DNA of 64,000 bases from a phage. The notes beneath the pieces were generated by a model. That model worked only from the letters and a program-made list of their open reading frames with translations, was not told the DNA's origin and searched no databases. Every line of letters starts with the position of its first letter. Positions within the stretch are counted from its first letter, which is position 1. Of the stretch, positions 19,705 to 33,502 are shown piece by piece. The stretch lies in sequence record NC_101837.1; one strand, written 5' to 3'. The position numbers and the translations under genes were made by a program.

Positions 19705-19944
19705 ATGTACAAGTCATTTTCAATCTACTCAAGACAGGCGAAACACTACACAGAGATCCTGATCACTCAGAAAAAATCTGTGGAAGGTGAGTGGGAATAT
19801 CACCATAAAATGTTGCGTCCAGACTGGGTTTTTGATAGACTTATTGCTATGATCCCTCTCGGAGAAGTATACCCTCTGACAGCCCATCGCGATGCTTGGG
19901 ATTTAATTGATTACATAGATTCATTTAAGGAGCCTAGATTATGA
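19705..19944 (+). CDS. hypothetical protein
   Basis: ATG after AGAGGGGG RBS. Confidence 0.35.
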   Translation: MYKSFSIYSRQAKHYTEILITQKKSVEGEWEYHHKMLRPDWVFDRLIAMIPLGEVYPLTAHRDAWDLIDYIDSFKEPRL

Positions 19945-20339
19945 AGATTGAGATTACTAAAGAAGGTAAGAAAGTGTCCGGCAACTATGCAACAGTAATT
20001 CGGGATTTAATGTTTGAAGCCACCAAGATCGGTACATCTAAAGTTGGTCAAACTGTTAGTGTGAAAAGTAATATCTCCACAGGAGAGAAGGTATTCATTG
20101 TGGTCAAAGGGCAGGATCCCGTGGAAGGAACAGTGGGCCGAGGTGGCTACCTGTGCATTTCTGAAGAGCCGCGTATGTTAGTGGCTGACGCTACTATGGG
20201 TGGGAAACGTGTGTGCGAGGCGGATGAGGTAATGATTATCCAACCTGTTGATCCAGATGACCCAGCAACTTGGGTGGTAGGAAATGAAATCTTCTCTTTA
20301 GAAGAGTTATCCTTCCCAGCACCGCGCTCTGTTCAGTAA
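19941..20339 (+). CDS. hypothetical protein (possible distant member of small acidic paralog family A)
   Basis: MKIEITKEG N-terminus, VKGQD core, acidic C-terminal region. Confidence 0.45.
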   Translation: MKIEITKEGKKVSGNYATVIRDLMFEATKIGTSKVGQTVSVKSNISTGEKVFIVVKGQDPVEGTVGRGGYLCISEEPRMLVADATMGGKRVCEADEVMIIQPVDPDDPATWVVGNEIFSLEELSFPAPRSVQ

Positions 20340-20376
20340 TAATTTATCTTACCAGGGACGGTAGGTAGGAGGTAGC

Positions 20377-20610
20377 ATGAAAGTTAAATTTCTTACAGAT
20401 TTAGGGTACCCTTCCTTGGTTGACTGTGTTGGTAAAATTGTGGAAGCAAAACGGCTATCTGCAAACGAGAATGTTGTCCTGGTTAAAGGGAAGGATTTAC
20501 TAGCTGCAGGTGCAGAGTCTGGCAGGATCTCTCCTGATTATATGTATTACCTATCTTTAAGTAATCTGCCAGAGCGAGGCGGTAAAGGCCTTGAAGTTGT
20601 GGAGGAGTGA
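20377..20610 (+). CDS. small acidic protein, paralog family A
   Basis: MKVKFL..., VLVKGKDLLAAGA, C-terminal EVVEE. Confidence 0.5.
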   Translation: MKVKFLTDLGYPSLVDCVGKIVEAKRLSANENVVLVKGKDLLAAGAESGRISPDYMYYLSLSNLPERGGKGLEVVEE

Positions 20611-21140
20611 CAGGTATGCTTCTGATTAACTGGGAAGACCTCTATGGGGACAAAGACCCTGTTGCGTTTGTTGATCGTAGGTGGAGATACACTGAAGAAC
20701 AACTGGCGGCAAAAAATCTAACTGCAAAACGCAGAAAGATCATCCAGTGCAAGTACAAATACGCACAGTTTGCTGCAAAAGTGTCTCCACAAATCGAGAG
20801 CTTTGTGCTTAAATTGTATGACGAGTACCTCAAATCCAAATTGGATTTTGTGCAGGTGTACCGTGCACAGGTACGACCAGATACCAACATGTGTAGATGG
20901 AAGGTTGTTTGTGAAGGTAAAGATTTGCCGCTCAGCTTGACAATTGAGTGGCGTTATGGGTATCATGAGTGTGGTCTGTATGATATTTGGGATGTCATTG
21001 TAGATCCTGCTAAGCATCTGAACACAGAGGAGCTGGAATATATCAATAAGGTTATTCTCGATATGTTTTTCAGCTACACACATGAAAACTCTGAGAAAGA
21101 ACGGGATAATTTTCTTGACACCCTCAGCGACCATTTGTAG
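20607..21140 (+). CDS. hypothetical protein
   Basis: 177 aa ORF. Confidence 0.45.
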   Translation: MTGMLLINWEDLYGDKDPVAFVDRRWRYTEEQLAAKNLTAKRRKIIQCKYKYAQFAAKVSPQIESFVLKLYDEYLKSKLDFVQVYRAQVRPDTNMCRWKVVCEGKDLPLSLTIEWRYGYHECGLYDIWDVIVDPAKHLNTEELEYINKVILDMFFSYTHENSEKERDNFLDTLSDHL

Positions 21141-21170
21141 TATACAATTTAACCTACAAAGGGAGGACCA

Positions 21171-21398
21171 ATGAGTATAAATGTTGTGCTAATAGGTTAC
21201 CTGGTAATGTCCGTTATAACAGCGGTATTCTTGACAGGTGTATGCATCGTGTCCAGACGAAGGGTGAAGTTTGATGATTTTATCACCATCATCACTGCTG
21301 CACCTTTTTGGCCTGTTGTTATCTTCATCGTAATAATGTGCCTAGTTGATTACTACAAGAATATCAGGAAGGAGAGTAGGGATGGAGACCGCACCTAA
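21171..21398 (+). CDS. small membrane protein
   Basis: Two hydrophobic segments, GGAGG RBS. Confidence 0.45.
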   Translation: MSINVVLIGYLVMSVITAVFLTGVCIVSRRRVKFDDFITIITAAPFWPVVIFIVIMCLVDYYKNIRKESRDGDRT

Positions 21399-21617
21399 AA
21401 CTATCTATACTGTTCTTAAAGAGATTGCGTTCTACGCAGATCTTAGCCAGGCACCTTTATGGGAAAAGAGCATGTATTTAAAATGGTGCGTTAATTTAGG
21501 GAGACCTTCCAGTGTTTCAAGCCATGTTTATTGAGATGCTATCTGGGATATTGTTACTGGTAGCCATCTTAGGTGGTGCAGTTCTGATGTATAACTATCT
21601 TGAAAAAGGAGACAGCA

Positions 21618-21803
21618 ATGGTAAAAAATAAATCTTTAGAGCAGGCTGAAAACCTTCTCCACGAGCTGGTAAAGGAGTGGAAAGTTGAATACTCAGATTT
21701 TAATGCACGAGAGGGTGAAGATTATTGGCCTACGGAGCGCTCAGAGGGCGAATGGTATCAAGATTTTATAGAGTGGTTATATCAGACGTGCGATGAGGGG
21801 TGA
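21618..21803 (+). CDS. hypothetical small acidic protein
   Basis: ATG after AAAGGAGA RBS (MVKNKSLEQ...). Confidence 0.4.
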   Translation: MVKNKSLEQAENLLHELVKEWKVEYSDFNAREGEDYWPTERSEGEWYQDFIEWLYQTCDEG

Positions 21804-22270
21804 CGATGTTTGTTAAATATGTAAAAACGTGCCTCAACAGTCTTGGCAGAGAGCATTGGTACACCTTGCTTGAAAAAGGGGAAATTTTAACAAAATCTGG
21901 AAAGATAACTTTGATACCTCTTGATAGTAAAGGTAAAGACCCGTCACGACTTGTTATAGATGATTACGTTACAGGTGTGACGTTCGAGGTCTCTGTGGAG
22001 AGGTTAATACGCAGAGCTGGCGGCCCTTATGACCGAAGAGAGTATGTTTTCGATTCCGTTACAGAGATGGGGGAGCATCCGTCTTTAATGTTCAGGATGG
22101 TAATCAGAGATATGAGGTCATCTATAGATAGGATCGTAAAGGACATTAAGGAACCTTTTAGAGTAAAAGTTAAGAAGTTTTTCGATTCTAAGATTAACAT
22201 ACTCGCCGTTGCACTAGGTGTAGTTCAACTTCTGTTAATTTTGCACTATTTTGAACTACTATTTAAGTAG
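21800..22270 (+). CDS. hypothetical protein with C-terminal transmembrane anchor
   Basis: C-terminal ILAVALGVVQLLLILHYF hydrophobic helix. Confidence 0.45.
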   Translation: MTMFVKYVKTCLNSLGREHWYTLLEKGEILTKSGKITLIPLDSKGKDPSRLVIDDYVTGVTFEVSVERLIRRAGGPYDRREYVFDSVTEMGEHPSLMFRMVIRDMRSSIDRIVKDIKEPFRVKVKKFFDSKINILAVALGVVQLLLILHYFELLFK

Positions 22271-22332
22271 TAGTTGAGATATGGCACAAAGGATGTGCCA
22301 TAGTGAAATAAACTAAGAAAGAGGTAGAGAGA

Positions 22333-22680
22333 ATGCCAAAGATTAAAACGTTATTACTGTGGGTAGCTGTTTTAGCTTTTATAGGGTACTGGACTTGGGA
22401 AACTGAATTAAAAGATATCGGATATACCAGTCTTGAGAGCAAGGCGTGCATTGGCATAACCGATGCGTTCAGGCAAAATGCTATGGATCATGAATGTGTT
22501 GATGCAGATATAGATGAGAAACTGTCTAAGGACAAAGATTTTTACCATGGGCATGCTTTACTTGATAGTGGTGACACTGTAGAGTTCTGGTCGTGGTTTC
22601 GTGAAGATGGAACAATAAAAACAGCAGTAAAGATCTCTAACAAAGAGTTAATGCTGTTGCAGCAAAAGGAGGCTCAATGA
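22333..22680 (+). CDS. hypothetical protein with N-terminal signal-anchor
   Basis: N-terminal LLLWVAVLAFIGYW hydrophobic segment. Confidence 0.45.
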   Translation: MPKIKTLLLWVAVLAFIGYWTWETELKDIGYTSLESKACIGITDAFRQNAMDHECVDADIDEKLSKDKDFYHGHALLDSGDTVEFWSWFREDGTIKTAVKISNKELMLLQQKEAQ

Positions 22681-22964
22681 TCTGGATATCCTATGCTGAT
22701 GGTACCATGCTGTATACTGCAGGTACCAGATATGAAGTTCAGGAGAACGATAAAAAATTTATCGTAAAAACATTTGACAAGGACGACAACCTTTTGCTAG
22801 AATTGACTTACAAAGTTGGAGAGGTATCCAATATCCAGTTGGATTGTGGTCATAAAGATAATCCACTCAAAAAACCTGGAGTAGGTAAGGCTTCAGAAGA
22901 ACGTCTGTCTCGTATTGCAGAAAGCGTTTCTCCCCAAAAATCTAAGAAGAGGACTAGAAAATGA
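22677..22964 (+). CDS. hypothetical protein
   Basis: 95 aa, translationally coupled. Confidence 0.45.
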   Translation: MIWISYADGTMLYTAGTRYEVQENDKKFIVKTFDKDDNLLLELTYKVGEVSNIQLDCGHKDNPLKKPGVGKASEERLSRIAESVSPQKSKKRTRK

Positions 22965-23155
22965 AAAACTTACGTTTTAACACTTATTACTACAACACAT
23001 TGAATGATTTGTATTATATTGTTCGAAGTAAAAGTCCTGAAACAGTCCTATTCTGCCGCGAACCTTTCAAAGGGGAGGAAGTAGAGTCTGAGATGAATGT
23101 TAGCCAGATCACCTCTTTGTTGCTCTCAGGCGCAATGGAAGAAGCAATATTCTAA
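22961..23155 (+). CDS. hypothetical small protein
   Basis: 64 aa, coupled start. Confidence 0.4.
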   Translation: MKNLRFNTYYYNTLNDLYYIVRSKSPETVLFCREPFKGEEVESEMNVSQITSLLLSGAMEEAIF

Positions 23156-23173
23156 ACCAGGCAGGAGGGTTTT

Positions 23174-23362
23174 ATGAAGCACTATTGCCTGTCTGGTAGA
23201 ATGGGTGCAGATTGTGATTGGGTTTTCTTAAAACTTGTCAGCATTCGAGAGTTCATCCCAGAGGAAGAGCAAGAAAGCGAGCTGATGTCATGGATCAACC
23301 ATTACGGTAACACTTTTCGGCATGTTAAGGTAGAAGAGTTGCCAAGCGAGGCTGAATTATGA
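23174..23362 (+). CDS. hypothetical small protein
   Basis: 62 aa, GGAGGG RBS. Confidence 0.4.
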   Translation: MKHYCLSGRMGADCDWVFLKLVSIREFIPEEEQESELMSWINHYGNTFRHVKVEELPSEAEL

Positions 23363-23655
23363 AACTTTTTGAGTGGTTTAAAAAGTTTAAATATAAAGCT
23401 GTAGCCATCGTGCCGTGGTCCATTCAGTGGGTTGATGAAGGTGGTCTACCGATACCTGGTGACAAAGATACTGGGTACTGGATTATGATGGAGAACGGGT
23501 TTGGAAAGCGAAAGTATACGTGCACAAACTCTACTCGATCTGCACTTAATAGAGTGCCTGGTTACAAACTTATGGTTGTGTGGAAAATGTCAGGCGTGCC
23601 TCCAGCCAATGCTCAATTTCTTACTGACAATCCGACCACGGTAGAGGGAGATTGA
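23359..23655 (+). CDS. hypothetical protein
   Basis: 98 aa, coupled start. Confidence 0.45.
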   Translation: MKLFEWFKKFKYKAVAIVPWSIQWVDEGGLPIPGDKDTGYWIMMENGFGKRKYTCTNSTRSALNRVPGYKLMVVWKMSGVPPANAQFLTDNPTTVEGD

Positions 23656-23657
23656 TA

Positions 23658-23939
23658 ATGAAAAAGATTAACAGTAGTGAAGTAGAGTTTAAACTTGTCG
23701 GAAAAGGCACTTACTGGGAAGTTCGTCAAAAGGTATATTTGTTCGGTCTTATTCCCTACTGGTCTAAATTCTACTGGGGAGCTAACGAGTTGGGAAGATA
23801 CGCCACCAAATCAATGGCACTTATTGGTATAGCAGAGTACATTGCAGCCCGAGACAGGGTTGGAACCACTTATTACTACACTGCTGACGATATTCGTAAC
23901 AGTGTTTACGTCCCACAACCACCTGATGGAGACCGTTGA
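23658..23939 (+). CDS. hypothetical protein
   Basis: ATG after GGAGGGAG RBS (ORF-track start 23652 is TTG). Confidence 0.45.
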   Translation: MKKINSSEVEFKLVGKGTYWEVRQKVYLFGLIPYWSKFYWGANELGRYATKSMALIGIAEYIAARDRVGTTYYYTADDIRNSVYVPQPPDGDR

Positions 23940-24163
23940 TGAAAGTTAAAGTTTTAGATTCAAGCTTCTATATTGGTCAGGAGCCTTTAGTAGGAAAAGT
24001 GTTTACTGCTGTCCCTAACGAAGATTACCCTGACCTTTTAAAAATAAAAGGAGCAGATCTTATTGCCGCTGGTGCATCTCAGGAATGCTTTGACAGTCAG
24101 TGGACCTATAACTTTGCCCTAGGTGAGGATGTAGAGGTAGTGGAGGACGATCATGAAGGTTAA
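23939..24163 (+). CDS. small acidic protein, paralog family A
   Basis: MKVKVLDSSFYIGQ..., KGADLIAAGA, C-terminal EVVEDD. Confidence 0.5.
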   Translation: MKVKVLDSSFYIGQEPLVGKVFTAVPNEDYPDLLKIKGADLIAAGASQECFDSQWTYNFALGEDVEVVEDDHEG

Positions 24164-24407
24164 AATTCTTGATTCTAACGTCTACTTGGGACAATCCTTC
24201 CTGAATGGAAAGGTCGTTCCTGCGGTATACTTTGAAGGGTTGCCGTGGGATGATCCTGTGCGGCAACATCACAGTTATGTAGGCCACAACGTGGTGTTTA
24301 TCTTGGGATCAGACCTGATCACCGCTGGTGCACCTGAATATTATTTCGGGGAAGAGTCCTACTATGCCTTTGGGGTAGGGTCAGATGCAGATATTGTAGA
24401 GCTGTGA
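24153..24407 (+). CDS. small acidic protein, paralog family A (tandem duplicate of 23939-24163)
   Basis: MKVKILDSNVYLGQ..., GSDLITAGA, C-terminal DIVEL. Confidence 0.5.
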   Translation: MKVKILDSNVYLGQSFLNGKVVPAVYFEGLPWDDPVRQHHSYVGHNVVFILGSDLITAGAPEYYFGEESYYAFGVGSDADIVEL

Positions 24408-24419
24408 TGGGTAACCGTT

Positions 24420-24818
24420 GTGAAAAATAAACTGTTTAAAGTTACAATGAAAATTCGCGGGGCTTGGAGCGTAAAGCAAGGGCGTATCCCAGAATTTGAG
24501 AAAGACTTCTACGTAGTCTCCACCTCGGAGGAGGCTGCATGCTGGCAGGCTGGCTATGCATATGCAAGAACCTGGTACGAAGGATACCAGACTGGTGGCT
24601 ATGACGGAGAAATTATCAGCAAGGGTGTAGAAGAAATTAATGTGTTGACAAGTGAAAAAGTTTTTGTTATAGTGCATCCAGATTCCAGAGTGAAGCATTA
24701 CTGGAATGCCAGAACAAAAACTTGGACACCGTTTGCAGATTCTGCTACACCACTTTTAAACCAGAAAGCTCTTGACTCTGTCCCGAGCTATGGGGTTGTT
24801 GAAGAAAAGCTAAACTGA
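24420..24818 (+). CDS. hypothetical protein, paralog family B (start uncertain)
   Basis: Shares EKVFVIVHP.S...YW......WTP block with 26625-27020. Confidence 0.45.
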   Translation: MKNKLFKVTMKIRGAWSVKQGRIPEFEKDFYVVSTSEEAACWQAGYAYARTWYEGYQTGGYDGEIISKGVEEINVLTSEKVFVIVHPDSRVKHYWNARTKTWTPFADSATPLLNQKALDSVPSYGVVEEKLN

Positions 24819-24835
24819 AACGGTGAGGTACTAAC

Positions 24836-25126
24836 ATGATGGATTTAGTTCTAGACACTGATAACACCGGAGCGTTTAAAAAGGATGGTGTAACAAGCGT
24901 TGACCAATCATTCCCTGCCAAGATTGACTCAAAATGGACCTACAAGTTTGATGGAGAGATCTTCGCAAATGATGAGAAGGTTGTAGATGCTGCAGCCATT
25001 TTGAACGCTCTAGGGTACGACCCTGTGAATTCTTTGATCAAGGATCCTGTTGAGTTTGCAGAGTATGTTCGAAAAATGGCAGATCTTGCTGTGGATATTT
25101 TAAAAACTATCGACAACAATCTGTAA
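24836..25126 (+). CDS. hypothetical acidic protein
   Basis: 96 aa, GGTGAGG RBS. Confidence 0.45.
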   Translation: MMDLVLDTDNTGAFKKDGVTSVDQSFPAKIDSKWTYKFDGEIFANDEKVVDAAAILNALGYDPVNSLIKDPVEFAEYVRKMADLAVDILKTIDNNL

Positions 25127-25132
25127 AAACTG

Positions 25133-25161
25133 TTGACACAACGCTTCAGATTTAGTATCAT
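25133..25161 (+). promoter_or_regulatory. sigma70-like promoter upstream of HPF-like gene
   Basis: TTGACA-17 nt-TATCAT. Confidence 0.5.
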
Positions 25162-25208
25162 TGTTTTCAAAGAGGGTTTGGTTCCCTCTTCTTTAAAAGG
25201 AACACGTT

Positions 25209-25526
25209 ATGCAAATTGAAATCACTGGCAACGTAGAAATCACTGAAGGTATGGTGTCTTTCATTTCCCACAAAATGTCTAAGCTGGAGCGTTTGCATCC
25301 CTCTGCCAACTATGCACGTGTGAGTGTAAAAGTTGAAAATGATCACCAGGAAGTTATGGCGTTCATTTTTGACAATTCTGGAAAAGAAGTTATTGCCAAA
25401 GCTAAAGGCAGTGATGCTTACGAGGCAACTGACCGTATGGTAGATGTTGCAGCACGTCAACTGGCTAAATGCGGTGGAAAGAGAGGTAAGGGGAAAGGCA
25501 AAGTAAAGATTGACTTTAGAGAATGA
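25209..25526 (+). CDS. hpf: ribosome hibernation promoting factor / RaiA (YfiA) family homolog
   Basis: MQIEITGNVEITEGM...KLE...VKVEN...KAKGSDAYEATDRMVDVAARQLAK matches the HPF/RaiA family pattern along its length, as recalled (not computed). Confidence 0.75.
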   Translation: MQIEITGNVEITEGMVSFISHKMSKLERLHPSANYARVSVKVENDHQEVMAFIFDNSGKEVIAKAKGSDAYEATDRMVDVAARQLAKCGGKRGKGKGKVKIDFRE

Positions 25527-25535
25527 GGTGCTACA

Positions 25536-25637
25536 ATGGGTGTGATCAAGAAATTAGTCCCAAATGTAGAGATTGCATGCTTTGAAATTATGTTTGCAAT
25601 CGCAGTTGTAGTTAATGTGTTAGGTTACGGCTATTAA
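25536..25637 (+). CDS. 33-aa hydrophobic micro-protein (not in ORF track)
   Basis: ATG after GAGGTG RBS; one predicted TM helix. Confidence 0.3.
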   Translation: MGVIKKLVPNVEIACFEIMFAIAVVVNVLGYGY

Positions 25638-25663
25638 TATCAAATAATTGAGGAGACCTCTAA

Positions 25664-25933
25664 ATGAAAATTAAATTATTCAAAACTGAGCTGGCAGACA
25701 AAAACTGTGGACTGGTTGAAGGTATGATTGTCGAAGCACAACCAGTTGACTATATGAAGGTGGTTCGTGATGCCCTGGGTGAAGGTTTTGATCTGATGGA
25801 GCCAGCTCTGCGAGAAGATGTTATCGAGATGGCTAAAAAGCACACACCTGAAGGCATGGTGGTGTTTGTTGCACCGGGTAACGGAGAAGAGTTGATTGTA
25901 ACTCCGGATGTGTATGAGATTGTAGAGGAATAA
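25664..25933 (+). CDS. small acidic protein, paralog family A
   Basis: MKIKLFKTE..., C-terminal YEIVEE. Confidence 0.5.
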   Translation: MKIKLFKTELADKNCGLVEGMIVEAQPVDYMKVVRDALGEGFDLMEPALREDVIEMAKKHTPEGMVVFVAPGNGEELIVTPDVYEIVEE

Positions 25934-26024
25934 TCCTGCTTGGATTAGCATACTTCCTCGATAAGGAAGGTTTGTAATTATTTGTGGGAAAGGAATCCCA
26001 ATCTCTTACCAGAGGTGATACTAT

Positions 26025-26288
26025 ATGATTGTTTATTTTAAAACTTCAGGTGGATACCCTGATTCTCAAAGCTTGATCGGAAAAACGTGCACAGCATACT
26101 CACCTCTTGATGAGGAGGTAGGCGATATTCTACGAAATATGTATCGGATTGATCCTCAAGAAGCTTTTGATCAAAACCTTGTATTTGTCAAGGGCTCAGA
26201 CATGAAGTCTTTGGGAGCATTCCCTGAAGCAGATGATGATGCCGTTTATTCGTTCATGACCCCTTTTGAAGCTATGGTTGTTGGGTGA
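26025..26288 (+). CDS. small acidic protein, family A-like
   Basis: VFVKGSDMKSLGA core. Confidence 0.45.
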   Translation: MIVYFKTSGGYPDSQSLIGKTCTAYSPLDEEVGDILRNMYRIDPQEAFDQNLVFVKGSDMKSLGAFPEADDDAVYSFMTPFEAMVVG

Positions 26289-26292
26289 TAAT

Positions 26293-26625
26293 ATGAAAGT
26301 ACGCTTTATTGGTGAAACAATTCCTGTGCATCTCCGGTCGCCTGAGGATTCTGCAGATCTTGCATCTCAAAAGGCGAGAGGTTATGATAAGAAAGTAACC
26401 TCAACTGATGTAGTGCTTGAGGCTACTAGTCTACCTGACCCTGCTGCATTCTTTAATCATTATGGGTACTATTTCAGCAATCTGATGAATATCGGTGAGC
26501 TTGTGTTTATTAGTGGTGGAGAAATTGTTAGCAAGCTTGGCGGCGATCCGGATATCTTTCATGAAACCTGTCCTTTTGCATTTGTAGTAGGTTCAGATGT
26601 GGAAGTTATTGAGGAGGTGCGGTAA
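26293..26625 (+). CDS. small acidic protein, family A-like
   Basis: MKVRFIGE..., C-terminal VEVIEEVR. Confidence 0.45.
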   Translation: MKVRFIGETIPVHLRSPEDSADLASQKARGYDKKVTSTDVVLEATSLPDPAAFFNHYGYYFSNLMNIGELVFISGGEIVSKLGGDPDIFHETCPFAFVVGSDVEVIEEVR

Positions 26626-27020
26626 TGGTAAGCCTATACCGTGTTGAGTATAGCTCAGATACTGTATACAACGTAAGAAGCAAAGATCGCAGCGACAGAG
26701 TGCAAGAAATGTATGTTCTTGCCGACAGTCCGTTATCTGCAGCGTTCAAGGCAGGGGCTCTTGCATCTCGTTGGAAATTTGAAGGTGGATCTTTCTATGA
26801 AGAAACCCTTGAAGATTCTGTTGTTATTTCTTCTGTAGAGGTTTCAGATGACTACGAAGGGAAAAAGTTCGTAATGCGGCACCCACACAGCAACATTGCG
26901 TACTACTGGGATGTTCTGAACAACGAGTGGACCCCAGATCTTCAGAAGGCTACTGTGCTAACACCGTTTTTGGCAGATAAGTTCCCACCAGAAGGTAATT
27001 TATCCGCACTGTTTCAGTAA
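26625..27020 (+). CDS. hypothetical protein, paralog family B
   Basis: KKFVMRHPHSNIAYYWDVLNNEWTP block shared with 24420-24818. Confidence 0.45.
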   Translation: MVSLYRVEYSSDTVYNVRSKDRSDRVQEMYVLADSPLSAAFKAGALASRWKFEGGSFYEETLEDSVVISSVEVSDDYEGKKFVMRHPHSNIAYYWDVLNNEWTPDLQKATVLTPFLADKFPPEGNLSALFQ

Positions 27021-27038
27021 TTTTCTTGCACACAGGTG

Positions 27039-27067
27039 TTGACAACGCCAACCCTGTGTGAAATAAT
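27039..27067 (+). promoter_or_regulatory. sigma70-like promoter with flanking palindrome
   Basis: TTGACA-17 nt-AATAAT; CACAGG...CCTGTG inverted repeat brackets the -35. Confidence 0.5.
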
Positions 27068-27099
27068 ACCTTCATCTTAACAAGACAGGGGACCGATTG

Positions 27100-27357
27100 A
27101 TGAAGATTAAATTGAAAAACCTTGAAACGGCAGAGATTCAGGACGGTGTTGATTTCCGTTCTAAAGATGGTGACATCTTAGAGGTAAATATTCCAACCTA
27201 CGAGCTGATTAAAGGTTTTGGCAACGTTCCGGAAGAGGATATTACAGAAATTCTTATGATGTTGATTCTTGACGGAACTGTGTTTGTAGGTGAAGGTGAG
27301 AACGCTATTGCAATCCCAGGCCATTTTTATGAAGTAGTTGACGAAGAGGTGCTGTAA
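27100..27357 (+). CDS. small acidic protein, paralog family A
   Basis: MKIKLKNLE..., C-terminal YEVVDEEVL. Confidence 0.5.
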   Translation: MKIKLKNLETAEIQDGVDFRSKDGDILEVNIPTYELIKGFGNVPEEDITEILMMLILDGTVFVGEGENAIAIPGHFYEVVDEEVL

Positions 27358-27708
27358 ATGAAAGTAGAAATTACCGGTTTTGATGTGAATGTGGTTCCGG
27401 AAGATATTTTAGCTAAACTTCCAGAAGGTTTTGGTAACGGCGTTGTGGTGGATGCTGTTCCTCCTACTAAAGACATTCTGCTGCAGTATGGTGTAGCAGA
27501 GGAAGATGTCGATAAAGTTCTTACAATGATGGCAATCGATCGTGTTGTCGTTGTTAAAGGTCTCGATAATTTTGAGAGTGATCCACTGATTATTCGTGGA
27601 GATGACTACAAAATCATCGATAATGAAGGCCAAGAGTTCTATGAGCCTTGTGCAGAAGATATTCTTAACTTATTACTGGAAGCAGGCACCGAAGAGGAGG
27701 ACGAATAA
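27358..27708 (+). CDS. small acidic protein, paralog family A
   Basis: MKVEITGF..., VVVKGLD, acidic tail EEEDE. Confidence 0.5.
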   Translation: MKVEITGFDVNVVPEDILAKLPEGFGNGVVVDAVPPTKDILLQYGVAEEDVDKVLTMMAIDRVVVVKGLDNFESDPLIIRGDDYKIIDNEGQEFYEPCAEDILNLLLEAGTEEEDE

Positions 27709-28037
27709 TGAAGATTGACCCGTTACTGAAGGCTCGTGCAGAAAAAGCGTACACCATTAAGTTGACCAACTTGGTTCCTACTTGTCATCCGGATGTAGGT
27801 TGGCCCGAAGGTTTGGTGGAGGGAACTGTAACAGCTGCATACCTTCCTAACATCAAATACCTCATGGAAATCTTGGAGCTGGATGAGGAAACGGCAGAAG
27901 AGTTCCAGTTGGACATGAAACAAAGTGGGACTCTGGTTATTCACGGGTGGTACAATACTAAAGATGCAGAAGACCCTCTGGTAACTTCTAATCTGGCATA
28001 TGAAATCTTAGGGCCTTTGAACCTGGAGGAAGACTAA
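27708..28037 (+). CDS. small acidic protein
   Basis: 109 aa, acidic C-terminus, coupled start. Confidence 0.45.
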   Translation: MKIDPLLKARAEKAYTIKLTNLVPTCHPDVGWPEGLVEGTVTAAYLPNIKYLMEILELDEETAEEFQLDMKQSGTLVIHGWYNTKDAEDPLVTSNLAYEILGPLNLEED

Positions 28038-28324
28038 TGAAAGATCTGGTTAAGATTAAGATTAAAGATACCAATGGAGAACTCAGCCATTTTGGAATTA
28101 ATGATGGTGACGAGCTGATCGCACACCTGCCTACCAAGGAAGTTGTAAGCAAAGCAGTTGCCGGAGAAGAAGATGCAATGCAGGCTGCAGGTGTGGATGA
28201 AAACTATGTAGCTATGTGCATGTGCCGAGATCAGGTTGTTCTGTATAAAGCGTATCGACCAAACGGAGCCACGGAGTGGCTTGTATTCCGACCAGAAGGA
28301 TATGAAATCTTAGAGGCACTATGA
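28037..28324 (+). CDS. small acidic protein, paralog family A
   Basis: MKDLVKIKIK..., C-terminal GYEILEAL. Confidence 0.5.
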   Translation: MKDLVKIKIKDTNGELSHFGINDGDELIAHLPTKEVVSKAVAGEEDAMQAAGVDENYVAMCMCRDQVVLYKAYRPNGATEWLVFRPEGYEILEAL

Positions 28325-28413
28325 TAAATCTTGCCAAGGTTGCAACGGCACTATTAATTATTTGCTGGTCAGTAACCTTAACACTGTGTCTTGTATTTCA
28401 GTAAGGTGCTTAT

Positions 28414-28677
28414 ATGAACATCCTGATGTGGGTTGTAGCAGTGGCGTTTGTTGCATGTTTTTGCTGCTGGGTTGCGGTGAGGATTTCTGTAGCTACCCTT
28501 CGGAAGTTGGGGTTCTCAGAGTGGGATATTAATATCCTTTCTTTTCGCAATGAAACAATCTCAGCCGCCCTACTCTGTAAGAAATTCAAGTGGGAACCTT
28601 GTGAGGTCATGAACTATCTAAGAACGGGTGATATACCTGAAAGATTTAAAAAAGTTCTTGACGGCAATGATAAATGA
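28414..28677 (+). CDS. small membrane protein
   Basis: N-terminal MNILMWVVAVAFVACFCCWVAV TM helix. Confidence 0.4.
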   Translation: MNILMWVVAVAFVACFCCWVAVRISVATLRKLGFSEWDINILSFRNETISAALLCKKFKWEPCEVMNYLRTGDIPERFKKVLDGNDK

Positions 28678-28705
28678 TAGTATAGTGACTAACAAGAGGT
28701 GAGGA

Positions 28706-28843
28706 ATGACTGATTTTACTGAAGCTTTAATGATGGCCTTGTCTGTTTTAGCGCTATCGGTGTGTTTTGGGGCGTTATTCACATCTCTGGTTAAAGTTTT
28801 ACATACAGTATTATTACCCAAGGAGCGCAGTAATGACGAAGAT
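28706..28843 (+). CDS. 45-aa hydrophobic micro-protein (not in ORF track)
   Basis: ATG after AAGAGGTGAGG RBS; TM helix ALMMALSVLALSVCFGALF. Confidence 0.3.
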
Positions 28844-29084
28844 TGACTTAAATGCTGGAGACCATGTTGTTGTCAAATGCATCGGAGATTATCTTGGATT
28901 CACAATCGGCAATACTTACGAGGCGGTAGTGGCGAAGGTTTACCATGATAAAGTCCTCAGTCTTGTATTTGACTGCGATGATGATGGGGATGACCGATAC
29001 GTCTGTGAGGTGCTGGCACGAGACGATAGTGAAGACCAGAAATTCCTGGTTATTGAACTGAACGGTATTTTTGTAGAACGTTAA
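28833..29084 (+). CDS. hypothetical acidic protein
   Basis: ATG after AAGGAG RBS (ORF-track 28767 start unlikely). Confidence 0.45.
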   Translation: MTKIDLNAGDHVVVKCIGDYLGFTIGNTYEAVVAKVYHDKVLSLVFDCDDDGDDRYVCEVLARDDSEDQKFLVIELNGIFVER

Positions 29085-29112
29085 TTTAAAACAACATAAG
29101 GAGACTCTTACT

Positions 29113-29418
29113 ATGGCTAAATCTAAAGTTGAACTGTTCACCTCTCTTCCTTCTGACACTGCAGAGCGTGATCGCCTTCGCAAAACAATCGAAGAACTGG
29201 TAGAACTCCAACTTCAGATTAAAGATCTGAAAGATGCCATTAAGGATATCATTCTCGTTGAGAAGCAGGATCACCTGTATTCTCCTAAATTCATCAAATC
29301 TCTGGTGGCTACCGAGTTCGATATTCGCTATGAGGCTGAAAAACGTCGCGCTAAAATCGAAGAAGAGGTTGAGCACATGTCTGAGGCAGACATTCTGTTC
29401 AAACGCTCTGTAGAATAA
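29113..29418 (+). CDS. hypothetical coiled-coil protein
   Basis: 101 aa, AAGGAGA RBS, followed by strong terminator. Confidence 0.5.
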   Translation: MAKSKVELFTSLPSDTAERDRLRKTIEELVELQLQIKDLKDAIKDIILVEKQDHLYSPKFIKSLVATEFDIRYEAEKRRAKIEEEVEHMSEADILFKRSVE

Positions 29419-29423
29419 TGACA

Positions 29424-29452
29424 AAGAGGGGGGCTTGGGCCCCTCTTTTTAC
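29424..29452 (+). terminator. intrinsic terminator
   Basis: AGAGGGG-ggcttgggc-CCCCTCT hairpin followed by TTTT. Confidence 0.7.
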
Positions 29453-29473
29453 TATCTATGAAGGAGATTTGAG

Positions 29474-29800
29474 ATGGGTATGCCGATTACTGTAAAAGAG
29501 CTAAATGAACGTGATGCAGGTGGTCTATGGCCTGCACGAAAAATCCGCTGCGTCTATATGAAAGAGAATCTTGAACATCTTGATCAACAGGTAAAGGTCG
29601 GCGATATTTTCGAGGTCTTCTATTCCAATCGGCGCAACTGGGAAACCATTCAGCCTTCTGGTTTTGTTCTTGCCAAACTTGACACTGGAGAAGTGATTAT
29701 CCCTGGGTTGGATATTGTCTTCGAAATTATCCAAGAGTGGGATCCGGATAAGATTAGATACGAAGAATTATTCGGTAAAGGTATTATCAAACCTGTGTGA
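29474..29800 (+). CDS. hypothetical protein
   Basis: 108 aa, AAGGAGA RBS. Confidence 0.5.
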   Translation: MGMPITVKELNERDAGGLWPARKIRCVYMKENLEHLDQQVKVGDIFEVFYSNRRNWETIQPSGFVLAKLDTGEVIIPGLDIVFEIIQEWDPDKIRYEELFGKGIIKPV

Positions 29801-29808
29801 GGTGGATT

Positions 29809-30108
29809 ATGTCTACAAAGGCGGCTAAATACTCCTATATGCCATCAACCTCTGCAGAGGTAGACTTTAGTTTCGATGTGTTTCCACTGTTTGAGGTGAT
29901 TCTGGCATACCCAACAATACTATCTACTCCTGAATCACTTGTACCTGTTAAGTTGCAGAACGCTATGCATTCTATGCACTACAACAATAAATGTAGGCAC
30001 AGATGGTGTCAGGACGAGGAAAAAGATTTGGATAGTTTGAGGGATTTTGACAGTCACCTTTTGACACCTTTCAGCTACTCCAACCTTGATAAGCCCTCAT
30101 GGGTATAG
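29809..30108 (+). CDS. hypothetical protein
   Basis: ATG after GAGGTGG RBS. Confidence 0.4.
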   Translation: MSTKAAKYSYMPSTSAEVDFSFDVFPLFEVILAYPTILSTPESLVPVKLQNAMHSMHYNNKCRHRWCQDEEKDLDSLRDFDSHLLTPFSYSNLDKPSWV

Positions 30109-30132
30109 CAAAATATCAAATTTAAGACACCT

Positions 30133-30159
30133 AGGACGCTCTGTGGCGTCCTTTTCTTT
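30133..30159 (+). terminator. intrinsic terminator
   Basis: AGGACGC-tctgtg-GCGTCCT hairpin followed by TTTCTTT. Confidence 0.65.
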
Positions 30160-30321
30160 ATCTGGTGCACGATTGCATACCTTGGACAGATAATCTCGTT
30201 ACAGAGCGTTTAAGAGCTTTCTACAAACAAGTCTCTCTTTCGAGCGTAGCGAGAACGCACGTCCGTTTTGACCCAAATCACCATACGCTCGGATTTTAAC
30301 CAAACCCTCGCGGCGTTTCTG

Positions 30322-30350
30322 TTGACACATTACCGCTCTCGTGATAGTAT
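30322..30350 (+). promoter_or_regulatory. sigma70-like promoter
   Basis: TTGACA-17 nt-TAGTAT. Confidence 0.5.
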
Positions 30351-30468
30351 CCACACATCGTTTGGAGAATATGGGATACACAATGAGAACATTGTCTGAA
30401 GTTTTAGTGGTGATCCTGATGATTATTACGTCCATAGCGGCTGTTGCCGGAATACTCACAGGTGGAAC

Positions 30469-30681
30469 ATGATCAACACACATGCATCTGAAGAGACATC
30501 CAAAGGAGTGACCATATGTCCATTGGCTGAGCCAGTGAAAGGGGAAAACTTCGATTCTGAAGATTCTCCATCTTCGCTCCAGGTAGATCCTGAGGCTGAT
30601 GACTTGACGTGGGGAGACATCGTAGATATCTGGTTCTCTATTATGCCTGAGCACGAAGAGTTCAGAGGTGGTAGACTATGA
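30469..30681 (+). CDS. hypothetical acidic protein
   Basis: 70 aa, AGGTGG RBS. Confidence 0.4.
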   Translation: MINTHASEETSKGVTICPLAEPVKGENFDSEDSPSSLQVDPEADDLTWGDIVDIWFSIMPEHEEFRGGRL

Positions 30682-30803
30682 AGCACCGAGCCCACACAGG
30701 TTCCTCATGCTAAAGCATGGCCTGAAGAGGCAAACGTGCATAATTCCAGCGTATTGGAACGCATAAAACCCTGTTCACACTCTCATTTTCCAGAGGAGAT
30801 TTC

Positions 30804-31019
30804 ATGAAGATAGAAATATTTGGTGGGGCTGACAACACTCGTGGCCTGATTTACCTTGAATTCGATGAATCATACCTGCCAGAGGTGTTAAATATAGACT
30901 CTGTTGCTGAGGCTTTGGGAGTAAACCCTAAAGAACTCCACTCTTGTGCTGAGATCGATGGTTGGGAAGAGACCATGAACATTGATTTCAGTGAAGTAGA
31001 GGATGAACCGCTGGACTGA
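30804..31019 (+). CDS. small acidic protein, family A-like; last plus-strand gene before the non-coding region
   Basis: MKIEIFGG..., acidic C-terminus EVEDEPLD. Confidence 0.45.
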   Translation: MKIEIFGGADNTRGLIYLEFDESYLPEVLNIDSVAEALGVNPKELHSCAEIDGWEETMNIDFSEVEDEPLD

Positions 31020-32549
31020 CACACAATTAGCTGCCCGGCTAAAGTGCTGGAAGCACCTATAACACATCTTTCAACTAAATTTCCTACCACCACAATCACT
31101 TACCTCCCACACATGACTGTTTGCTTGTTTAGTGAGCAGTCATGCCTTGACATTCTTGCCTATCTTGATAAAATTAAGTTCTTCTCTTTTCTTTTACCGA
31201 GTAATTCGGGTTTTCTGTTCTCTTCGGTTTGAAGGGGTATGGAGATACACCTGAGTGAACAGGGTGAACAACCGAACCTTTGGCTATGGCATTAGCATGG
31301 CGAAGCGGACGGGTGACGAAAGAGGGGCCGGAGGACACCAGTCACTGCCATATGATATATGGGTGATAACCTGAAGAGTCTGAATAAGTGTTTAAGTACC
31401 AGTCAGAGGAAAAGGTGAATGGTAGCCGAAGGGGGATGGGGGGTTTCTTGTATCTTTAATTTGTATATTATGTATACACTTGTAAACCAATCTCATCTGA
31501 ATCTGTTTACCACACAAAGCGGATAGAGACAAATATCACCTATTAAACTTGAATTATTTATAGAAAATACCACAACACCAATTAAGTCTTTGATTTTAAA
31601 CACAAATCCTACAGATATTCAACCTCCATATTTAACATACTCGTAACATATTCCATACTCTACCTGTCTGATCAATTTACCCAACTACATCCCCATATTT
31701 TCCCTGTCTGTACTACCCCATCCCCGCCGGGAGTCCCGTCATATCTGGCTTTCCAGCAAATATCACACCCACAAATATCATTGCCTGAAGAGGGTTTCAT
31801 CCCATAATACATGCCTTACATGAAGAGCGCTTCATACACCACGTAAATTTTTTAATTGACCTCCCCGCCGCCGGAGAGGTTGGCTTTTCCCCACACAGAC
31901 CTGAAGAGTCAGCCAGAAATATCTGAACAGGTCCAGTTCTGCCTTGTCATGAGCCGTAGCGACTGGAGTGCTGCCAGGCGGACGGAATGGGAATACTTCT
32001 CATTCTTATAATAATTCTCAAATATCGAGGCAGTGAGGCAAATTAATAGGTGAGGCCGTTCACACAGTGGCACAACATTTGCAATCTATTTTGTGGGGGT
32101 GAATGAGAATACCTATCATTGTGAGAACTGTTATCATTACGGGCAATTTAACATAATACCCATTATGCGCACCACTGGCGATCCATACAGGGATTGATAA
32201 CATGAGTTACAGTTTACGCATATAACAATCATATTTCTTACTATTTGTGTGGGATATAGTTAGCAGCCGATAGATTAGATATTGACCTGTGGACTTCCAA
32301 CCGTCTAGACGTCTAAACGCCCACACAACAAGGATTATACATACATTACTGAATGTAAACAGGGCCGCAAAAATGCTACCATACCAGTTTGTAAATTTTT
32401 CATGCAGCACTTGACAAAGAGAGGAAAAACTTGTCTGACATGCTGGGCATACTTCACACCTTAAACATACTCAACACTGGATACAATAACAATTGTTACT
32501 ATTGCATGCCTCACTGTTCACGTATAGACTATTTGCTCAAAAATGATAA

Positions 32550-32569
32550 GCCATGCCATTCGTTTGCAT
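32550..32569. repeat. 20-bp direct repeat, copy 1 (GCCATGCCATTCGTTTGCAT)
   Basis: Exact 20-mer repeated at 32822-32841. Confidence 0.7.
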
Positions 32570-32654
32570 GATAACAATAACGATCAACAACAATAAAGAC
32601 TGAAATGATAACGTTGTTGATTTGACTGACTAACAATTAACAGGCTAATAATCT

Positions 32655-32798
32655 ATGACATAATATAAAAGCAGGGCAACTATTAGCAGATCTATAGTTG
32701 CCTTGCTTGTTATGTCATGATTAACTAAATACAAGGCAACTATGATCTGATTAATAGTTTGCAGACAAACTATCACGGGGGTGATGGTTACTGCTTTT
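32655..32798. repeat. iteron-like cluster bracketed by an 18-bp inverted repeat
   Basis: ATGACATAATATAAAAGCAG ... CTGCTTTTATATTATGTC arms enclose at least 5 copies of GGCAACTAT / ATAGTT(T)GCC in both orientations. Confidence 0.65.
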
Positions 32799-32821
32799 AT
32801 ATTATGTCGCGACTCCGTCGC

Positions 32822-32841
32822 GCCATGCCATTCGTTTGCAT
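32822..32841. repeat. 20-bp direct repeat, copy 2
   Basis: Identical to 32550-32569; followed by a further ATAGTTGCC copy. Confidence 0.7.
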
Positions 32842-33502
32842 AGTTGCCTTATTGTTACAGATAAAATAATTGTATTGTTAATTATTTCTTATCTTTCTAT
32901 TAGTCATCTAATGATTCCAGTTAGTATAGTAACGTACAGTAAACATTAGACGACTAAAGATTTCTCTGATTATGATAACTTGCCGTGACAATTTCAGACT
33001 GTTTACGAAAAATGTTGACACCTGAGCTGATTTATGTTATGCAATTTAAACGAATAATTATTTTATGCAGGTATTGACTATTCTGTTATCCTATGGTCGG
33101 AATAAATACTTAGCAGGCTATAGAATGGTGAGCGTACGTAAATTCTGAGATCTGTCGGCTATAGTTATACTCGATTTTTCACGTAGAACACGCTTTTTGG
33201 TTTGTGTAAGTGTATGACTTATAAAGATTTTTAGTTGTTGACAAGATATTGAAGATGTGCATCAGGTTAAATTTTGTGCAATAGCTGCATTACGTGCAAT
33301 TTTGGAAGGAAAACGGGTAAAAATAGCACCGCTACCACACAATGAAAGGTTATGCAATAGTTATTTTACATGTATATTTGTACAGTGTGTGGGATTGATG
33401 GCTCGTCAATTATTCCACTTGCCAGGTAGGGCCGTTTATGGTAGGGAGGAAGAGCAGACAAAAAGAAAGGGACCTAAGCCCCTTGATAATTCAGTTAAAA
33501 AA

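Follow-up and report, generated by a model that had tools for sequence, protein, structure and literature searches.

A ten-gene array of small, predicted SH3-like proteins in a Vequintavirus genome and a three-gene cassette that may counter host defense

A 64,000-nucleotide stretch of phage DNA (NC_101837.1; hereinafter, the window) carries, between positions 19941 and 31019, a long run of small genes that a sequence-only reading took for a tandem array of at least ten diverged acidic paralogs accompanied by a second pair of paralogs. The question raised by this locus is whether these genes are indeed related to one another and, if so, what the phage could gain from so many divergent versions of a small protein. 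The window belongs to a Vequintavirus (rV5-like phage), and the array region is, over its full length, 98–98.6% identical to more than 100 genomes (e.g., those of rV5_ev168, Murica and MaxBurger) in a coliphage group that is therapeutically relevant. All genes of the region lie on the + strand, the open reading frames (ORFs) are present at the coordinates given here, and the region corresponds to the distal end of the rV5 transcription unit that spans genes 82–163, according to Kropinski et al. (PMC3606486). In Murica, the genes across the region are labeled “hypothetical”, save for a RaiA/HPF homolog, a “virion structural protein” and a “transcriptional regulator”; the array genes carry the hypothetical-protein annotation in more than 100 Vequintavirus genomes. 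Small early or accessory phage genes mostly belong to the “dark matter”; here, twelve of them are sorted into families, two or three in number, for which a fold can be predicted.

The 37 annotated-type genes located between 18.8 and 31.0 kilobases (kb) were translated and compared all-against-all using BLASTP and phmmer, and ortholog-enriched profiles, each consisting of one gene and its database orthologs, were compared pairwise using hhalign. In a leave-one-out test, a hidden Markov model (HMM) built from four ortholog groups was used to search the complete set of window ORFs with 35 amino acids (aa) or more, 551 in number; the left-out group was recovered at rank 1 every time, and the next ORF never reached a better E-value than 0.04. 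By these sequence comparisons, the array consists of exactly ten members that fall into two sequence families of five, denoted A1 and A2, plus the pair of genes of family B. The single family of at least ten paralogs that was originally perceived thus retains its ten members and their similarity beyond chance but resolves into two families, to the exclusion of the genes at 19941 and 30804. A profile search of the window ORFs on both strands reveals no further A1 or A2 member, and none is present in the remaining 71 kb of the Murica genome. The first of the two excluded genes, g19941 (19941–20339, 132 aa, phrog_5748), is recovered by neither the A1 nor the A2 profile; the same holds for g30804 (30804–31019, 71 aa), for which the best E-value, obtained in one leave-one-out run, is 0.16.

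Family A1 includes small acidic proteins of about 70–110 aa with the motif MKVK..Y..(V)GK.v.A...I.G.DLI.AGA...Y.F..G.E.EvvEE. Its members (given here and below with the corresponding genes of rV5 and of phage Bas54) are the solitary g20377 (20377..20610, 77 aa; rV5 ORF127, bas54_0166; phrog_5009 at 8e-36); g23939 (23939..24163, 74 aa; ORF140, bas54_0159) and g24153 (24153..24407, 84 aa; ORF141, bas54_0158), the first two genes of what is denoted below as cassette 1, with an 11-nucleotide (nt) overlap between them; and g26025 (26025..26288, 87 aa; ORF147, bas54_0152) and g26293 (26293..26625, 110 aa; ORF148, bas54_0151), the first two genes of cassette 2. BLASTP and phmmer detect the similarity between g23939 and g24153 (E-value 1.6e-14) or g20377 (7e-7), between g26293 and both g23939 and g24153 (4e-4 to 7e-4), and between g26025 and g20377 (2e-3). 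In the hhalign comparisons, most pairs are matched with the probability of 70–99% (e.g., 98% for g20377 and g23939), and only the pairs g24153–g26025, g20377–g26293 and g26025–g26293 score lower. The leave-one-out E-values range from 1e-18 to 2e-5 (2.5e-7 for g20377, 1.9e-6 for g26293 and 2.4e-5 for g26025), with rank 1 among the 551 ORFs throughout. When tested against an A1 profile enlarged with distant relatives, all five proteins match with the probability of 98.5–99.9% (99.1% for g26025, 98.5% for g26293), and the five A2 genes, g19941 and g30804 fail.

Family A2 consists of the solitary g25664 (25664..25933, 89 aa; rV5 ORF146, bas54_0153) and four contiguous genes, namely, g27100 (27100..27357, 85 aa; ORF150, bas54_0149), g27358 (27358..27708, 116 aa; ORF151, bas54_0148), g27708 (27708..28037, 109 aa; ORF152, bas54_0147) and g28037 (28037..28324, 95 aa; bas54_0146). 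These proteins are characterized by an N-terminal MK(V/I)K strand, a second strand of the form G..v.A, and an acidic YE(I/V)(V/L)EE end. Of the motifs that the sequence-only reading ascribed to the entire array, the N-terminal strand and the acidic end are indeed common to it; the central G.DL(I/L).AGA block is confined to A1 and missing from A2. The similarity within A2 is lower: the E-values are 3e-4 for g27100–g27358, 4e-3 for g28037–g27358 and 0.016 for g27708–g27358 (BLASTP/phmmer), and the hhalign probabilities are only 2–28%, yet the alignments are long (59–84 columns). The leave-one-out E-values range from 3.6e-10 (g27358) through 6.8e-6 (g28037) and 5.7e-4 (g25664) to 2.6e-3 (g27708), again with rank 1 out of 551 for all five. 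In the PHROGs database, the A2 members are split over phrogs 11868, 12359, 12155, 12457 and 12794, with one listing each.

Some of the A2 genes have unusual counterparts in other sequences. In the rV5 reference genome NC_011041 (L012, 9526–9796), the g28037 ortholog is represented by two overlapping ORFs, ORF153 and ORF154, owing to either a frameshift or a sequencing error. In phage phiWec189 (L002, 9001–9249), the protein encoded by the g27100 allele shares only 52% identity with its counterpart in the window, with flanks that are 96–100% identical, so that a single gene within the A2 operon has been replaced by a different allele. Finally, a 98-aa protein encoded in a 657-base-pair metagenome contig (P0086) corresponds to g27708 in its C-terminal half, and its unrelated N-terminal half matches PF24132.

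Searches of Pfam, NCBIfam, PADLOC and PDB sequences with the A1 and A2 members yield nothing significant. Even at an E-value of up to 1, there are no Pfam matches for nine of the ten proteins, and g28037 shows only sub-threshold hits to LRAT and HTH_16; neither the KOW (PF00467) nor an SH3 model is detected. The members are spread over several PHROGs groups that are labeled “unknown function”, and neither the rV5 genome paper (PMC3606486) nor the accessory-gene screen of Silas et al. mentions the array genes. The suspicion that the family might be undescribed is thus well founded: it is a family without a described function.

Structural modeling provides further clues. The AlphaFold2 models were built from the family alignments using g23939 for A1 and g27100 for A2. 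The A1 model, with the predicted local distance difference test score (pLDDT) of 90.4 and the predicted template modeling score (pTM) of 0.78, contains strands 2–5, 21–23, 33–37, 56–61 and 65–69 and a short helix (38–43) after strand 3 that bears the conserved G.DLI.AGA block. The A2 model (pLDDT 89.2, pTM 0.77) contains strands 2–5, 26–28, 61–63, 70–72 and 77–80, and two helices that separate strand 2 from strand 3. Both models consist of five strands in the same order, and each matches solved small β-barrels of the SH3, KOW and PsaE types, with some SH3 PDB chains common to both. Hence A1 and A2 are predicted to be SH3-like small five-stranded β-barrels. Compared with the known SH3, KOW and PsaE barrels, the match is one of fold, without a Pfam SH3 or KOW sequence match, and the short G.DLI.AGA helix of A1 and the two-helix insert of A2 are additions. 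In the longer A1 members (g24153, g26025 and g26293), the extra residues are located where the A2 insert is. At the sequence level, the comparison of the A1 and A2 profiles gives probabilities of only 7.8% and 8.5% (E-value 0.004) and stays non-significant even when 25 distant A1 relatives are added; the pairwise hhalign comparisons of individual A1 and A2 ortholog groups likewise yield no significant match. Shared ancestry of A1 and A2 is plausible.

Among the predicted structures of viral proteins in BFVD, the A2 model matches only uncharacterized phage proteins; the BFVD model of the g28037 ortholog from ECP32 aligns with the A2 model at the template modeling (TM) score of 0.67. The acidic 83-aa product of the gene at 28833–29084 (+), which is outside A1 and A2 by sequence, may be another small β-barrel. 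The BFVD model of an 83-aa protein from Shigella phage CM1, presumed to be its ortholog given the equal lengths, aligns with the A2 model at the TM score of 0.52.

The second paralog pair noted in the sequence-only reading, family B, is readily confirmed: g24420 and g26625 are similar by BLASTP (E-value 7e-10) and hhalign (probability of 94%), and both belong to phrog_7379 (E-values of 5e-74 and 2e-66, respectively). This family is detected only in Vequintavirus. The first copy, g24420 (24420..24818; B1; rV5 ORF142, bas54_0157), encodes 132 aa from a GTG start or 123 aa from the ATG at 24447 that is used in the Bas54 annotation; the second, g26625 (26625..27020; B2; 131 aa; ORF149, bas54_0150), has its start overlapping the g26293 stop. 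Each is the third gene of a cassette, such that the A1-A1-B order is found twice, as g23939-g24153-g24420 (cassette 1) and as g26025-g26293-g26625 (cassette 2). When the 37 genes are shuffled, the probability for both B genes to follow an A1-A1 pair is 8.5e-5, and that of a run of four A2 genes is 2e-3. The repeated A1-A1-B order points to cassette duplication. The position-matched pairs g24153–g26293 and g23939–g26025 are linked by hhalign with the probabilities of 92% and 71%, respectively; the cross pairs are not clearly worse and, therefore, the case for cassette duplication rests mainly on synteny.

At the DNA level, no remnant of this duplication is found beyond a block of adjacent genes: the 30 nt at 24050–24079 (+) that encode G(A/S)DLI(A/T)AGA recur at 24306–24335 with 80% identity. 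In two independently assembled genomes (L013 and L014), a single 70-aa gene (P0014) takes the place of g23939 and g24153; this natural chimera combines the N-terminus of g23939 with the C-terminus of g24153, and the junction lies within the DLI.AGA block (P0014, P0018). Thus, the array still recombines, with the shared DLI.AGA block as the crossover site. A further chimera (P0028) joins a prophage-type A1 N-terminus to the C-terminus of g23939.

The gene arrangement and sequence conservation indicate that these are genuine genes. The claim of adjacent duplicates with translational coupling is borne out by start-stop spacings of -11, -1, +4, -1, 0, -1 and -1 nt, with Shine-Dalgarno sequences upstream. 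The few intergenic gaps are occupied by strong σ70-type promoters with a perfect TTGACA. One of these, P144 of rV5 (25133..25161, +; TTGACA-17-TATCAT, 11 of 12 matches), is listed in the rV5 Table S4 (PMC3606486) and annotated in NC_011041; downstream of it are a RaiA/HPF homolog (25209–25526, +; PF02482, E-value 1.3e-12), located in the middle of the array, a 33-aa ORF, g25664 and cassette 2. The other, P150 (27039..27067, +; TTGACA-17-AATAAT with a TG extension), is likewise an entry in that table (PMC3606486) and precedes the four contiguous A2 genes. Coding and conservation, on which the sequence-only reading made its proposal depend, are clear: the twelve genes are intact and keep their order in six other Vequintavirus genomes, and the pooled ratio of nonsynonymous to synonymous substitution rates (dN/dS) is 0.04–0.26 at dS of 0.05–0.21, comparable to the neighbor genes (e.g., 0.04 for g24420 and g25664, 0.06 for g28037, 0.07 for g27358 and 0.11 for g20377). 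Judging by these values, each copy is under purifying selection, so the description of the array as diversified fails if it is taken to mean that the genes evolve fast.

A phenotype for part of the array emerges from HIDEN-SEQ, an analysis of transposon libraries that saturate the genome of phage MaxBurger, also designated Bas54 (bioRxiv 10.1101/2025.11.20.689424). The window proteins are 98–100% identical to the Bas54 proteins (e.g., 86/87 aa for g26025 and bas54_0152 and 110/110 aa for g26293 and bas54_0151). In the Bas54 data for Escherichia coli K-12, the array orthologs are all classified as “non-essential” or “intermediate” (bioRxiv 10.1101/2025.11.20.689424). Extended Data Table 8 of this preprint (bioRxiv 10.1101/2025.11.20.689424) includes a resampling comparison between K-12 BW25113 and strain “311”. 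On this strain, the uropathogenic E. coli (UPEC) isolate CFE311, the transposon insertions in all three genes of cassette 2 disappear: the mean counts drop from 142 to 0 in bas54_0152 (g26025; log2 fold change (log2FC) -7.16), from 71 to 0 in bas54_0151 (g26293; -6.17) and from 108 to 0 in bas54_0150 (g26625, B2; -6.77), with the adjusted p of 0.00000 in each case. On K-12, bas54_0150 is non-essential because 25 of its 25 TA sites are hit. The depletion is weaker for bas54_0157 (g24420, B1; log2FC -2.14, adjusted p 0), and the value for bas54_0153 (g25664; log2FC -2.78) is not significant. The effect on cassette 2 is as strong as that on the two genes in the same CFE311 table that the authors validated as countering DS-28, bas54_0063 (log2FC -7.23) and bas54_0140 (-5.48). 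The pattern expected of a counter-defense gene, dispensable on a permissive host and required on another, is thus displayed by g26025, g26293 and g26625, more weakly by g24420, and by none of the other eight genes. Insertions in bas54_0154, 0155, 0158 and 0159, which are located upstream and transcribed in the same direction, have no effect on CFE311; therefore, gross polarity is unlikely.

The text of the preprint does not mention bas54_0150–0152 or 0157 (bioRxiv 10.1101/2025.11.20.689424), so that one cassette of the array is now tied to a transposon sequencing (Tn-seq) phenotype, undiscussed so far, on an E. coli strain of clinical origin. The knockouts reported there are those of bas54_0063 and bas54_0140 only, and the CFE311 systems cloned are DS-28 and Gao_Tmn (bioRxiv 10.1101/2025.11.20.689424). 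The ortholog of bas54_0140 in the window is g29809 (29809–30108, +; 99 aa, 99/99 identical), which does not belong to A1, A2 or B; the knockout indicates that this gene is needed to overcome the predicted defense system DS-28 of E. coli CFE311 (bioRxiv 10.1101/2025.11.20.689424). It is the closest parallel to cassette 2, being found in the same genus and the same accessory region, non-essential on K-12 and depleted on CFE311 (log2FC of -5.5 compared with -6.2 to -7.2 for cassette 2); the differences are that a clean knockout and the DS-28 match are available for bas54_0140, and that its sequence resembles none of A1, A2 and B. Two incidental features of the data can be mentioned. Insertions in the RaiA/HPF homolog have no effect on either K-12 or CFE311. 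In Extended Data Table 8 (Data S6, S7), the sheet entitled “resampling_K-12_vs_CFE303” bears the command line of CFE311, and the next sheet contains the same numbers over bas54_0060–0168; in the copy analyzed, the CFE303 comparison thus appears to be absent.

The following scenario appears best compatible with these observations. The proteins would be made from the host-σ70 promoters P144 and P150 as translationally coupled sets and would serve as small cytoplasmic modules for protein binding, with a different host factor as the target of each paralog, so that each copy would be retained for doing something different. At least cassette 2 (A1-A1-B) would be a host-strain-specific infection factor, dispensable on K-12 and required on CFE311, that most probably neutralizes an immune system present in CFE311 and absent in K-12; the SH3-like proteins and B possibly act as a complex. 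The proposed role in host takeover or anti-defense thus gains indirect support from the depletion of cassette 2 and B1 on CFE311, which does not extend to the other members. Taken as a whole, with the amplification history outlined below, the interpretation of the array as a host-takeover or counter-defense set has, in our estimate, about an even chance of being correct. A bolder version, under which A1 represents a novel and widespread group of SH3-like counter-defense adaptors in rV5-like, RB49-like and T1-like phages and lambdoid prophages, the Vequintavirus array is a “library” of ten binders, each with its own immune or takeover target in the host, and A1-A1-B is a three-protein inhibitor of a CFE311 defense system, is possible but rather doubtful. 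The link between cassette 2 and CFE311 could lead to a new counter-defense family together with its target and help to account for which hosts rV5-like phages can infect.

Several considerations weigh against a counter-defense role of the entire array. No phenotype on CFE311 is seen for seven of the SH3-like genes, among them the entire four-gene A2 operon, and sequence comparison does not demonstrate a common origin of A1 and A2. The phenotype itself comes from a single strain comparison, K-12 versus CFE311, and could reflect something besides immunity, e.g., host physiology. Because of the coupling within cassette 2, insertions in the A1 genes could be polar on B2; the data would then establish a requirement for B2 alone. 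Expression timing is deduced from the promoter sequences. Finally, the fold says little about function because the SH3-like barrel is too common.

With regard to alternatives, the sequence-only reading raised DNA mimicry, whereby the proteins would be decoys against restriction similar to Ocr, ArdA or Arn, with an acidic surface that resembles the backbone of DNA and thereby sequesters restriction enzymes or nucleoid proteins. Like those, the array proteins are small, acidic products of the kind expressed early by phages and plasmids and are encoded in a σ70-driven accessory region. The acidity as such is genuine: the isoelectric points (pI) are 4.05–5.4, most members have a pI of 4.05–4.7 and a net charge of -7 to -21 (the extreme being g27358, with -21 and pI 4.05), and the median pI of the wider A1 family is 4.45. 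It is, however, unspecific, given that unrelated small neighbor proteins are equally acidic. Across the family with its relatives, the net charge ranges from +1 to -21; that of g20377 is only -1, and some of the A1 relatives are neutral or basic. The conserved positions of A1 (Y11, G19, K20, G38, L41, G45, A46 and Y57) are hydrophobic and glycine fold determinants rather than a charge pattern, and the sequence searches of Pfam, NCBIfam and PDB link none of the proteins to Ocr or ArdA. The latter two mimic DNA through an elongated shape; here, by contrast, a β-barrel is predicted, and acidity is not a conserved, defining trait. Furthermore, K-12 BW25113, in which restriction systems are present, tolerates all the mutants. 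With no specific support, DNA mimicry appears unlikely.

Improbable, too, is a role in the modulation of host translation or transcription, in which KOW- or L24-like barrels would bind the ribosome, NusG partners or RNA polymerase alongside the phage RaiA/HPF protein; the RaiA gene embedded in the array and the structural matches to KOW and L24 point to such a role, which is at odds with a strain-specific phenotype. The array could also be seen as redundant or near-neutral “filler” that serves no particular function and was left behind by recombination within a plastic region, considering that all members are dispensable on K-12, most are without a phenotype on the one clinical strain, and one pair collapses to a chimera in nature. 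This explanation, to which we assign a low probability, is largely refuted by the selection data: all copies are intact and constrained (at the dN/dS given above) among genomes that differ at up to 20% of synonymous sites, the gene order is the same in seven of the seven genomes examined, and three or four genes are strongly required on CFE311. Least likely of all, the proteins could be packaged in the virion and injected to act on entry, like the internal proteins of T4, as the rV5 Table S3 label of gene 152 (the g27708 ortholog), “structural protein (MS evidence)” (MS, mass spectrometry), would imply, but no gene 152 peptides are found in the rV5 MS table, which leaves the label unconfirmed, only one of the ten members is so flagged, the genes belong to a non-structural unit driven by σ70 promoters, no capsid-targeting leader is seen, and bas54_0147 is non-essential and lacks a CFE311 phenotype.

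For the favored reading of the array as a host-takeover or counter-defense set, there are precedents with respect to both the type of protein and the mode of amplification. Tandem amplification comparable to that suggested here is known from the “accordions” of the poxvirus K3L gene. Among phages, a counter-defense gene that undergoes segmental amplification is tifA of T4 under toxIN selection (PMC9391042). As in the array, where the chimera directly reveals unequal crossover between adjacent copies, small accessory genes are multiplied in tandem through recombination; amplifications of this type are recent, near-identical and unstable, whereas the copies in the array are anciently diverged (20–40% identity) and their order is fixed across the genus. 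A counter-defense protein with predicted SH3-like domains is Nip of the Bacillus phage Φ3T, which counters the TIR protein SpbK and has been reported to join SpbK and the phage-encoded YonE in a complex (PMC11984713). The likeness is limited to the fold and the functional class: Nip is a protein of 279 aa with two SH3-like domains and an HU-like dimerization domain that is encoded by a single-copy gene of a temperate phage.

The phyletic distribution of the three families depends on the search method. In word-indexed and tblastn searches started with the window members, A1, A2 and B are nearly restricted to Vequintavirus, the one word-indexed exception being a prophage-borne relative of A1 in E. 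coli (P0031, P0035). The wider A1 family is visible only through an exhaustive HMMER profile search, which was run over 1.84 billion representatives with the E-value cutoff of 1e-3; the A1 profile matches 40 clusters, about 30 of which are distant relatives of 63–136 aa with the same motif set. A tblastn search with one distant A1 member retrieves 227 phage records, including those of Krischvirus (the RB49/Phi1 group), Tlsvirus, and phages of Proteus, Klebsiella and Citrobacter. Phage Phi1 possesses four or five A1-type genes in tandem (ORF071, 073, 074, 076 and perhaps 080) within a block of small hypothetical genes. In lambdoid prophages, the gene for a 75-aa A1 relative that is 46% identical to g20377 sits between those for the Q antiterminator and the holin; among 5,426 complete E. 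coli genomes, 35 carry this gene, invariably with the annotation “hypothetical”. The syntenic region of FENT2, a single genome of the sister genus Seunavirus, contains no A1 or A2 member. Thus, A1 extends far beyond the genus, and tandem arrays have formed repeatedly. Under the proposed history, an A1 gene would have been gained horizontally and then amplified in the ancestor of Vequintavirus, with the duplication of the three-gene cassette as part of this process; the copies would have diverged long ago, each now held by purifying selection, with occasional unequal recombination at the DLI.AGA block and occasional allele replacement.

Several other features of the region and of related genomes deserve a brief mention. 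MaxBurger (L018, 4966–5054, compared with the window at 21806–23655) lacks a block of six genes, g21806–g23359, that includes the “virion structural protein” gene of Murica and rV5; this block is dispensable because it is absent from MaxBurger. Outside the window, Murica gp13–gp16 (L015, 9233–10257) are tandem small genes encoding proteins of 87, 87, 87 and 77 aa with an N-terminal pattern “MAT..K/..G.VV”; located in the transcription unit of genes 11–26, they look like a third family of paralogs. Downstream of the array, at about 31020–33470, some 2.4 kb without a convincing ORF separate the units of the + and - strands, and the cumulative GC skew peaks near 28–32 kb. The matching gap in Bas54 (bas54_0134–0135) tolerates no transposon insertion (bioRxiv 10.1101/2025.11.20.689424), which suggests that this ORF-poor gap is an essential non-coding element such as an origin.

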